This document shows positions 29,208 through 43,292 of a stretch of DNA of 64,000 nt, piece after piece. Source of the DNA: Candidatus Thorarchaeota archaeon (GTDB taxonomy: Archaea; Asgardarchaeota; Thorarchaeia; Thorarchaeales; Thorarchaeaceae); contig RDOC01000002.1 of NCBI GenBank assembly GCA_011364985.1, positions 160,001 to 224,000 of the forward strand. Direction: 5' to 3'. The notes under the pieces are model-generated. The model ran no database searches. It worked only from the letters and a program-made list of their open reading frames with translations, and was not told the origin of the DNA. Numbering within the stretch: position 1 is the stretch's first letter; each line of letters starts with the position of its first letter. The translations under genes and the position numbers were made by a program.

Positions 29208-29284
29208 GGGCTCGTGGCGCAGCTAGGTAGCGCAGCAGGCTTTTAACCTGATGGCCGCGGGTTCGAATCCCGCCGAGCCCGCCA
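29208..29284 (+). tRNA. tRNA-Lys(TTT), intronless
   Basis: GGGCTCG/CGAGCCC, CAGG-CT-TTT-AA-CCTG, GGTTCGAATCC, CCA. Confidence 0.95.
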
Positions 29285-40922: not shown

Positions 40923-41963
40923 AGACCTCCGTATTTATCCAAGGCATATAAACACCGAATCACATTTGCATTGCAGATATCTCTGGATAAGAAATCCTGA
41001 CGAAAGGATTATCATGGAATCGCATTCATATTAGGATGGTGGGGTTTCAATCATGAGAGGAAGAATCATGCTATCTCGGTTACTTGCTGTTGCCTCTGCA
41101 ATCGGAATCGTAGTATCCGCAACACTCACTATGATTGCTTGGGGACTATGGAGTTCTGCTGTTCGTTCAACATTCAACACCCTCATGCAATTCTTTGTTA
41201 TCATCTTCTTCATTTCATTACCTCTTGGGATGTCCTAGAGGTCATCGAGAACCAACATGCTGAGGATGAGGGGCAAGGTCTAGAACTGGCATGATACGCT
41301 ACAGCAAATGCGGATGAATATTACTCCTACGTATTTGGGCGCCTTTTTAGCCCGTATTTTGACCTTGATCAAGCGGCCTTTTATAGTTGCATAGTACATC
41401 TTTCCTGTTTTGTGGCCAATTAAAGGAAGTTCACTCTTCCGAATCCGAAACAAAGCCAGGTTCAACAATACCATTAGAGACAGCATTCTCAATACGCTTT
41501 CTGTTTGATGCCGCTATTAGTAGAACTTGAATCAATATGCAATCAAAAAGGAGAAACACATTGAAGCCCACAATGATTGCCGATAGCAGGGATACAATCT
41601 CGGGTAATACAAGGATGAAAAGTGCCCTTGAAAGGACAACCTGAAGACCGAGTATAGAATCCAACTTCTTTCTGTATCTTACACCCTCAATACAGTCGAA
41701 CAAATCTGTACCTATGCTGAATTAACAGGCGTTAGTCATGCTCATCAGGCTTGAGTTCATTTTTTCAAACAAGTATAAGAATTTTTTAGATTCAAATTTG
41801 AGCTTCTCAAATGCATATTCTTCTCTCAGAAAAATCACAGTTATGGATGGCTAACATTGCTTAACGGAAAACTCTAAAAGCGACTCCCAAACCTTCAGGC
41901 TAGTTTCCATCAGATGACTTGCTCATCTAAAGGTGGAAATCATGAGACGTGGTGTTTCAAATA

Positions 41964-43292
41964 ATGAGTAAAGAAAAGGAGCACCTCAATCTAGTAGTAA
42001 TCGGCCACGTCGACCACGGCAAGAGTACGATGACCGGCCGATTGCTCTACGAGACAGGTGCTGTTGACGAACGAACCTTCCAGCAGCACAAAGCTGAGGC
42101 TGAGAAGCTAGGAAGGCCTTCCTGGGCCTGGGCTTTCGCGCTGGACAGGCTGAAGGAAGAGAGAGAACGCGGTCTCACGATTGACATTGCATTCTTCAAG
42201 TTCCTAACTAACAAATACTACTACACCATTATCGATGCCCCTGGTCATAAAGACTTCATTAGCGCTGCGTGATTTCCACTCAGCGGTGGAAAAAACATGA
42301 TCACGGGGGCCTCACAGGCTGATGTTGGTTTATTGGTAGTCAGCGCAAAGCGTGGTGAGTTTGAGGCTGGTGTTGGTCCTGGTGGACAGACAAAGGAGCA
42401 TGCTTATCTTGCTATGACCCTTGGCGTGCCAAGCCTTATTGTCTGTATCAACAAGATGGATGATGACAGTGTCAAATTCAGTGAAGACCGTTACAAAGAG
42501 GTCAAGGAAGAAGTCGAAGGTTTCTTGAAGAGCATTGGCTACAAAACTGAGAAGATTCCTTTCATCCCCACTGCTGCTGTTGATGCATGCAACCTGAAGG
42601 TGAAAACTCCTGAGAAGACCCCATGGTACAATGGTCCCTGCTTGCTGGAGGCTCTTGATGAGGTAGAGCTTCCACCGAAGCCAACCGACAAGCCATTGCG
42701 CTTGCCACTGAATGATGTCTACTCAATCAAGGGGGTTGGCACTGTGCCTGTTGGTCGTGTTGAAACCGGTATCATGAAAGTTGGCCAAAAGGTCATATTC
42801 ATGCCTCCAAATAAGACTGGTGAAGTCAAGTCCATCGAGATGCATCATGAACAACTCAAAGAGGCAGTTCCCGGAGACAACATTGGATTCAATGTCCGAG
42901 GTGTCGAAAGGAAGGACTTAGGTCGCGGTGACGTTGCTGGACCTGATAGCGATCCACCAACAGTAGCTGCTGATTACACTGGCCAAATAATGGTCATTCA
43001 ACATCCAACAGCTATTACTGTCGGTTACACTCCAGTCATTCATGCTCATACTGCTCAAGTTGCCTGTAGATTCGACCAGATTTTGCAAAAGCTTGATCAA
43101 CGCAGCGGACAGGTCATTGAAGAGAACCCAGACTTCGTTAAGAAAGGGGAGTCTATGATTGCCAAGCTAGTGCCTCTCAAGCCGATGTGCATTGAAACCT
43201 ACAAGGACTTCCCACAGCTCGGCAGATTTGCTGTTCGTGATATGGGCATGACCGTTGCGGTTGGTGTCGTGACCAAGCTCACAAAGAAGTAG
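41964..43292 (+). CDS. tuf: Elongation factor 1-alpha, join(41964..42261,42292..43292), 432 aa
   Basis: [35 protein letters not shown]; interrupted by a 30-nt BHB intron. Confidence 0.96.
42262..42291 (+). other. 30-nt BHB intron in EF-1alpha mRNA
   Basis: Helix TCAT/GTGG, bulges TA^G and AA^A, intron stem CGCTG/CAGCG; contains in-frame TGA. Confidence 0.9.

Follow-up and report, generated by a model that had tools for sequence, protein, structure and literature searches.

Bulge-helix-bulge (BHB) introns in archaeal messenger RNA have been reported from the coding sequence of cbf5 in Crenarchaeota and from the 5′ untranslated region (UTR) of HVO_1309 in Haloferax (PMC2738675, PMC7714728, PMC10485636), and no other archaeal mRNA examples were found in the searchable literature, where many subscription journals are not covered. 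Papers on introns in Asgard archaea concern tRNA genes (PMC11291895; bioRxiv 10.64898/2026.10.13.758758), and the same searchable literature, with many subscription journals outside it, yielded no mention of BHB introns in Asgard protein-coding genes. The gene considered here encodes the translation factor EF-1alpha and lies on a 64,000-nt stretch (the window) of contig RDOC01000002.1 of a Thorarchaeota genome; the nearest database relatives are Candidatus Thorarchaeota, in keeping with the probable Asgard host proposed in an earlier, first-pass annotation of this DNA. The EF-1alpha mRNA very probably carries a 30-nt relaxed BHB intron that the host's splicing endonuclease EndA and ligase RtcB take out.

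A single EF-1alpha gene is present in the window, on the + strand, and its translation runs from ATG at 41964 to TAG at 43290-43292. The insert, at 42262-42291, interrupts it with 10 extra in-frame codons (SAA*FPLSGG) after ...DAPGHKDFI, the stop being a TGA at 42270-42272; downstream, the EF-1alpha frame continues to the normal C terminus. Matched to the NCBIfam EF-1alpha profile, the part before the insert covers positions 1-99 and the open reading frame (ORF) from Met102 covers positions 102-426. The gap at positions 100-101 means that only a lysine and an asparagine are missing, and removal of 42262-42291 supplies both, the predicted splice rebuilding DFIKNMITG. The gene has no lesion apart from the insert. 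The first-pass description of EF-1alpha as split by a 30-nt insert with an in-frame TGA, its halves otherwise intact, thus agrees with the sequence at 42256-42296, the translation, and the profile matches on both sides. The parts of the gene are as follows:

41964..42261, + strand: EF-1alpha exon 1, holding codons 1-99 and the first base (A) of the Lys100 codon (translation, profile match).
42262..42291, + strand: BHB-type (HBh′) intron of 30 nt, the sole strict-BHB solution restoring DFIKNMITG, scoring 48.6 bits with a covariance model.
42270..42272, + strand: in-frame TGA of the intron, common to 7/7 alleles with an intron at this position (site A).
42292..43292, + strand: EF-1alpha exon 2, from the last two bases of the Lys100 codon to TAG (translation, profile match).

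A search by script demanded, as a strict BHB rule, that two 3-nt bulges, each cut behind its second base, flank a 4-bp central helix H, and that the inner stem have no fewer than 3 bp. It returns one solution that restores DFIKNMITG. This places the intron at 42262-42291, with H formed by TCAT/GTGG, bulges TAG and AAA, and an inner stem of 5 bp, and upholds the earlier claim that cutting after the second bulge bases restores the protein. This geometry, taken with fixed ends, 4 bp in H, and 5 bp or more in the inner stem, occurs in 331 of 2,000,000 random 30-nt segments of the host genome, a chance of 1.7e-4. The RNAfold minimum-energy fold of 42240-42310 (-22.1 kcal/mol, z = -2.36) holds four elements, namely the helix UUCAU/GUGGA, the 3-nt bulge UAG, an intron hairpin of the form CGCUG-GUG-(AUUUC)-CAC-CAGCG, and a distal 7-bp exon-exon helix. 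H thereby reaches 5 bp, with the first base of bulge 2 (42290) paired to U 42255. The elements of the motif are placed as follows:

42242..42248, + strand: distal exon-exon helix, 5′ strand UGGUCAU (Pro-Gly-His codons), pairing with 42297-42303; 98% of alignment cells paired over 7 alleles.
42256..42259, + strand: central helix H, 5′ strand UCAU (exon 1), pairing with GUGG at 42286-42289; 28/28 cells paired over 7 alleles.
42260..42262, + strand: bulge 1, UAG, a 3-nt bulge in the minimum-energy fold; the predicted 5′ cut at 42261/42262 is needed to rebuild the Lys codon.
42263..42285, + strand: intron hairpin h′, with stem CGCUG/CAGCG, apical stem GUG/CAC, and loop AUUUC (minimum-energy fold).
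42286..42289, + strand: central helix H, 3′ strand GUGG (intron); GUGA in five alleles, turning the outer U-G pair into U-A.
42290..42292, + strand: bulge 2, AAA, from the BHB rule; predicted 3′ cut at 42291/42292, on the relaxed side of the motif.
42297..42303, + strand: distal exon-exon helix, 3′ strand AUGAUCA (Met-Ile-Thr codons), from the minimum-energy fold and the allele alignment.

The canonical hBHBh′ form has an outer exon-exon helix directly beside bulge 2, a place where 1-2 bp are found here, the distal 7-bp helix lying beyond a 6x6 internal loop. The EF-1alpha intron motif is hence the relaxed HBh′ form and not the full hBHBh′.

Several points count against splicing by EndA and RtcB. 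The 3′ cut site (42291-42292) falls in the 6x6 internal loop of the minimum-energy fold and not in a closed 3-nt bulge, and the exon-exon helix next to it has only 1-2 bp. The minimum-energy fold bears out the first-pass one for helix H, bulge UAG, and the intron stem, but does not show bulge 2 as a closed bulge, while the first-pass description of the outer exon-exon helix as weak is borne out, with the distal 7-bp helix as an addition. Given so weak a helix at the 3′ cut site, cleavage would need an enzyme that accepts relaxed motifs, a tolerance that sequence likeness suggests for the host enzyme. Excision and ligation, moreover, are deduced from DNA sequence and not from RNA. The host genome (G000; 1.7 Mb in 22 contigs) is 74% complete, so that an intact second EF-1alpha copy in the missing part is formally possible, and it contains a tRNA-Sec gene, so that machinery for recoding UGA may exist.

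Conservation at site A weighs on the other side. Among the 108 archaeal EF-1alpha loci of the first two surveys, an insert at this site is found only in the window and in SHMX01000002 (Thorarchaeota isolate BC), a record that both surveys contain. Further alleles were obtained from a survey of all 86 genomes of the family, from pattern scans of genome and metagenome collections, and from a protein search, giving seven distinct 30-nt site-A introns: those of the window, of genomes G045, G052, and G024, and of metagenome loci L146, L148, and L151. The survey of relatives that the first-pass annotation had called for has thus yielded six further introns, with compensatory changes in their stems. 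The inserts are diverged and come from independent assemblies of four genera as well as several metagenome contigs, and the G045-type allele recurs in several JGI metagenomes. In the seven-allele alignment, the proposed structure pairs 95% of cells, and sliding the partner by 1-3 columns leaves 26-65%. Over the alleles, two pairs of h′ have changed on both sides (C-G/U-A and U-A/C-G/A-U; 6 cells), and the covariation score is 0.186 as against 0.108 for shuffles, with 0/500 shuffles reaching the observed value.

Lys100 reappears in every one of the seven site-A alleles once the BHB cut is made. Two of these, G052 and L146, discriminate further: their exon-2 side starts with AG, and the BHB cut alone gives AAG, in-frame read-through placing Gln where the Lys is invariant. 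Over sites A, B, and C, the strict rule gives a single solution in each of nine instances, always one that restores the conserved motif. A tenth instance, L151, escapes the script on account of a C-A mismatch that leaves the inner stem too short, and by eye the same cut restores its Lys.

Exon codons next to the intron are also distinctive. All seven intron-bearing alleles have GGT CAT AAA GAY TTC ATH ahead of the intron, and GGT CAT AAA occurs in 0 of about 27 distinct intronless Thorarchaeota alleles, which mostly have GGN CAC AAG. Within the distal helix, the third base of GGT and that of CAT have A68 and A65 of AUGAUCA as partners (alignment A2); the codons nearer the intron (GAY, ATH) vary. 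Fixation of GGT CAT fits selection for the distal helix, and shared ancestry of exon 1 may contribute to the pattern.

Two EndA paralogues are encoded in the host genome. EndA alpha (188 residues; G000 C11, L113) aligns over its full length with the Aeropyrum pernix catalytic subunit 3P1Z_B (E = 1.7e-46), and its stretch GIRKPKSADFDKP aligns opposite the Crenarchaea-specific loop region of that subunit. The second paralogue (213 residues; G000 C15, L114) has an EndA fold that has diverged and, where the alignment places the catalytic His, no matching residue; it is read as a structural, non-catalytic beta subunit. Asgard EndA belongs to the (alpha-beta)2 class and has an L1 loop, a feature that accompanies a broad specificity towards relaxed motifs (PMC5829648). 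RtcB is also present (594 bits). The host thus probably possesses an EndA able to cut relaxed motifs, together with the ligase. ARAGORN reports introns in 14 of 35 called host tRNA genes, several of them at non-canonical positions; the tRNA-Lys(UUU) gene in the window (29208-29284) has no intron. The cbf5 gene of the host is uninterrupted, with TIGR00425 positions 6-322 in one open frame without stops.

In the mechanism proposed, the EF-1alpha pre-mRNA would be transcribed with the 30-nt intron 42262-42291. Exon-1 UCAU would pair with intron GUGG as the 4-bp central helix, with bulge UA/G leading into the stable intron hairpin and the 3′ cut site AA/A on the other strand, and the distal 7-bp exon-exon helix would hold the relaxed HBh′ motif together. 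Two-subunit EndA would then cut after the second base of each bulge, and RtcB would join the exons and probably circularise the intron. This would rebuild the Lys100 codon (A + AA) and give an mRNA for normal 433-residue EF-1alpha. At the predicted spliced junction, GACTTCATTA is joined to AAAACATG, and a circular intron would join ...GGTGGAA to GCGCTG....

With the in-frame TGA present in 7/7 site-A introns, unspliced mRNA would terminate translation after 102 residues. Such mRNA might also be started at Met102 to give a 331-residue fragment, and gene callers call exactly that ORF. The 3′ end of the intron, GGTGGA, stands about 7 nt before ATG 42297 (window 42284-42299) and resembles a Shine-Dalgarno site; GGTGA or GGTGG is found at the 3′ end of all site-A introns because the same bases form the H strand. 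A stretch of the 5′ UTR, GGTGGAAATCATG (41932-41944), can pair over 13 bp (one G-U) with CGTGATTTCCACT of the intron (42268-42280), and 3/300 shuffles reach this. Such pairing is absent even in G045, whose intron is nearly identical to that of the window. A conserved splicing switch formed by 5′ UTR and intron was rejected, as the pairing is missing from G045, G052, G024, L148, and L151.

Four other explanations deserve consideration. The intron might be removed by means other than EndA and RtcB, for instance by another endonuclease or a small ribozyme, as the 3′ cut site not being in a closed 3-nt bulge of the minimum-energy fold, and the lack of any Asgard EndA cleavage assay in the searchable literature, would allow. 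This is improbable: the spacing of bulges and helix and the positions of the cuts fit the EndA rule at every site and in every lineage examined, 30 nt is too short for known self-splicing introns, and the same intron family occurs in a probable tRNA T-loop (described below), a classic EndA substrate. Removal by another route also explains nothing that EndA does not.

Still less probable is that the insert is translated, selenocysteine being placed at TGA or the codon being read through, so that switch II of EF-1alpha gains 10 residues. The insert is 30 nt and in frame, its TGA is kept in 7/7 site-A alleles, and the host tRNA-Sec (C11:352835-352925) lies near an EF-like paralogue that could be SelB. 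However, the peptides that would be made are unconserved (SAA*FPLSGG, NAA*FSRCSG, NAA*FPLGSE), whereas the RNA pairing is conserved, and read-through in G052 and L146 would exchange the invariant Lys of DFIKNMITG for Gln. Sister EF-1alpha introns, in addition, have frame-shifting lengths (31 and 35 nt) or contain TAA or TAG. An insertion of 10 residues in the middle of the switch II helix is also expected to disable a translational GTPase.

A pseudogene, or an assembly or sequencing artefact, would account for the in-frame stop that breaks an essential gene in a metagenome-assembled genome of 74% completeness, and is highly unlikely in view of the diverged site-A inserts from four genera and several metagenome contigs. 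True errors look different, as in the homopolymer frameshifts of G063 and the N gap of G045. Both exons are under strong purifying selection, and the gene has no other lesion. For exon 1, the ratio of non-synonymous to synonymous substitution rates (dN/dS) is 0.013-0.018 relative to L126 and L148, dS being too saturated for a ratio relative to L004 and L007; for exon 2 it is 0.02-0.05 with all four relatives, synonymous sites being saturated. Where computable, values in both exons therefore lie at 0.013-0.05. A second EF-1alpha was not found in the host genome, which holds only paralogous GTPases at about 33% identity, nor in the intron-bearing genomes G024, G045, G052, and G091 (92-97% complete). 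The first-pass annotation had raised the prospect of an intact second copy accompanied by relaxed selection on this one, and what is seen is purifying selection on both exons and no second copy found.

Programmed translational bypassing of the 30 nt, as in phage T4 gene 60, can be all but dismissed: a stop codon soon after the break and a stable hairpin in the gap recall it, but bypassing requires take-off and landing codons that match. AAA AAC is preceded by GGA and not by an Ile codon, no identical codon pair gives DFIKNM, and bypassing would explain neither the sister introns that shift the frame nor the exactness of the BHB geometry.

Splicing by EndA and RtcB thus remains the preferred account, drawing on what is observed of the sequence, its geometry, conservation, and covariation, the selection on its exons, and the enzyme genes of the host. 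The earlier proposal that EF-1alpha depends on tRNA-type splicing of its mRNA is accordingly well sustained by the motif geometry, restoration of the codon in seven alleles, compensatory changes, purifying selection, and the finding of no second copy, although the splicing itself is something that we infer.

The intron is not confined to one place in the gene. The closest exon-2 relative of the window gene, L150 (92% amino-acid identity), has no site-A intron and carries a 30-nt intron 14 codons upstream, at DxY/YYT. This is identical to the L148 site-A intron at 23/30 positions, and the differences are compensatory in h′ or fall in the H strand, which pairs with a different exon. G045 has a second EF-1alpha intron, of 31 nt at PSW/AWA, that has the apical motif GAUUUCC as well, and EF-1alpha of G091 has an unrelated 30-nt intron at DKY/YYT with a perfect GUAC/GUAC helix. 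The window intron belongs to a small family of mini-introns of about 30 nt with apical GAUUUCC (or a one-base variant), present at several Asgard EF-1alpha sites and in at least one probable tRNA gene. The motif or its one-base variant is kept in L126:460-490, L150:223-252, window 42262-42291, and L173:1501-1530, where the stems covary; these introns span three EF-1alpha sites and one tRNA-like intron, and the in-frame UGA of the site-A introns lies in the motif.

A covariance model of the intron family finds only the EF-1alpha copy in the host genome (48.6 bits), and over the 86 family genomes it finds four EF-1alpha copies and a 27.5-bit match in G095. The latter is a 30-nt sequence, UGCUGCUUGAUUUCCAAGUGGCA, at L173:1501-1530 on the - strand (G095:C38:36772-36801), flanked by GTGGGTTC and AAATCCCATCCTTCCCACCA, in which a T-arm, an acceptor strand, and an encoded CCA are discerned by eye. 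It is probably a tRNA T-loop intron. Neither ARAGORN nor Rfam calls a tRNA around the match, and for that reason the tRNA-like gene probably has further introns. Another match to the model, in G091:C7, is a false positive that lies in an open FEN-1-like frame (GCDFHSGVKGVG). Searching the host genome for GATTTYC-looped hairpins turned up four, of which none bears a clear relation to the intron.

In an EF-1alpha tree from which the codons around the site were left out, the site-A alleles do not form one clade; five changes are needed, at least three of them forced by well-supported branches, and G052 groups with an intronless sister allele at 99% support. The window gene is itself mosaic, in that exon 1 goes with intron-bearing alleles by about 2:1 and exon 2 with intronless congeners by about 1.5:1 (Fisher p from 2e-4 to 0.056 over 15 non-independent comparator choices); the pattern is stronger in G052 (p = 5e-6). 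The window and G045 introns differ at 1/30 bases, though synonymous sites between the two genes are saturated. Scattered alleles, mosaic exons, and a near-identical intron in spite of saturated dS together point to recombination as the means by which the intron may have spread, or been replaced, along with its flanking exon, in either direction. It is from this that we infer intron mobility.

In a sample of 141 Asgard genomes, introns that obey the BHB rule (31-35 nt) also occur in EF-1alpha of three other families. They are located as follows:

G175 (L159:240-330) and G187 (L160): EF-1alpha P-loop intron of 33 nt, in the Lys codon of GHxDHG/K/ST.
G135 (L161:590-690): EF-1alpha intron of 35 nt, between His95 and Lys96.
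G164 (L162): EF-1alpha intron of 31 nt, in the Asn101 codon, with a second interruption upstream near WAxA/F.

Within the host genome, a porA-type gene has a 32-nt BHB intron near its start (C11:138556-138587; L121:1469-1500), with H CCUC/GAGG, bulges AG/A and UA/A, and Pfam POR_N positions 1-19 and 21-230 on either side. This gene was indicated by a genome-wide scanner for strict BHB motifs that join two open frames, which also recovered EF-1alpha. The scan of other interrupted ORFs suggested in the first pass has therefore delivered one further intron, confirmed by Pfam, but no census, for which the scanner is too noisy (7,913 raw and 154 filtered candidates). One of its candidates, of 36 nt and BHB-like (C11:356348-356383), lies within or just upstream of the EF-1alpha-like paralogue at C11:355561-356253 (33-34% identity, a 470-residue open frame), which is about 3 kb from the tRNA-SeC gene (ARAGORN, anticodon TCA). 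For hutU and ahcY, family searches gave only truncated open frames.

Not every irregularity in an EF-1alpha gene is an intron. G063 is broken by homopolymer and deletion frameshifts; in G045, the third break is a scaffold gap filled with N and with a flank that is duplicated; and the 'split' genes of G143, G132, and G162 all lie at contig ends. Database entries of about 410-422 residues were considered as possible cases of N-terminal introns, and the one inspected (L153) starts with TTG but had been called from an ATG farther downstream. Assembly breaks with overlapping ends in the first third of EF-1alpha are seen in G055, G072, G143, G132, G161, G162, and G167; strain-level presence or absence of an intron could cause these, and so could ordinary breaks in the assembly graph. 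In two genomes from a single genus, the intact gene is followed 3-5 kb downstream by a partial second copy of the C-terminal third of EF-1alpha, with 85% identity and internal stops (G017:C2:45160-45567 and G092:C30:10766-11176).

A wider hypothesis, whose chances we consider even, is that BHB mini-introns of about 30 nt are mobile in Asgard archaea and move between tRNA genes and mRNAs, having inserted repeatedly in the first 100 codons of EF-1alpha and in other highly expressed genes (porA), and spreading by recombination that carries the flanking exon. If this is true, mRNA splicing by EndA and RtcB would be a routine part of expressing genes, across the genome, in the prokaryotes most closely related to eukaryotes. 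EF-1alpha is struck at several positions across Asgard families, and, if splicing occurs as proposed, a core and highly expressed translation factor would not be made without tRNA-type splicing. There are also practical consequences: gene callers split or truncate such genes, EF-1alpha database entries of 331-339 residues being exon-2 fragments, and marker phylogenies and completeness estimates based on EF-1alpha can be affected by intron-truncated calls. The locus offers a system for studying the competition between intron removal and coupled transcription and translation, the spread of small protein-spliced introns, and the tolerance of interrupted protein genes in the lineage nearest to eukaryotes.

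Among known systems, the stress-responsive HAC1/XBP1 pathway (IRE1 with Trl1 or RtcB) was invoked in the first-pass annotation. The likeness holds as an analogy of mechanism, since both are non-spliceosomal, with an endonuclease that cuts paired stem-loop sites and a tRNA ligase that joins the exons, which for XBP1 is RtcB (PMC8718801). It does not extend to regulation: the HAC1/XBP1 endonuclease is IRE1, which recognises another motif and acts under stress, whereas EF-1alpha gives no sign of regulated splicing, the UTR-intron pairing being unconserved.

Closer to the EF-1alpha intron are the non-canonical tRNA introns of Asgard archaea and Thermoproteales, which are likewise of about 30 nt, have relaxed HBh′ or hBH motifs, use the same enzymes, and show evidence of repeated gains (PMC11291895; bioRxiv 10.64898/2026.10.13.758758; PMC5829648); the probable tRNA T-loop intron of G095 even matches the covariance model of the EF-1alpha intron. 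Unlike in these, the host RNA here is a messenger with an in-frame stop, on which translation and folding of the motif must compete. The HVO_1309 5′ UTR intron of Haloferax volcanii is, like that of EF-1alpha, an mRNA substrate of the archaeal splicing endonuclease (PMC7714728; PMC10485636), but it lies in a UTR, is cut by an alpha2 enzyme, and leaves the reading frame independent of its removal.

The cbf5 intron of Sulfolobales and Desulfurococcales (Watanabe 2002; Yokobori 2009, PMC2738675) is like that of EF-1alpha in being short, in lying within a coding sequence, in its relaxed BHB motif, and in its host having an (alpha-beta)2 EndA, and both are patchily distributed in a way that suggests gain and loss (PMC2738675; PMC10485636). 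For cbf5, splicing has been demonstrated by experiment, whereas for EF-1alpha it is predicted here from sequence. In contrast to cbf5, the host gene is a highly expressed core translation factor, the phylum is Asgard, and the intron is one of a sequence family whose members occupy several sites in a single gene as well as a probable tRNA gene. The EF-1alpha intron thus joins the BHB introns of archaeal coding sequences, and is distinct among them by its host gene, its lineage, the number of its sites, and its signs of mobility.

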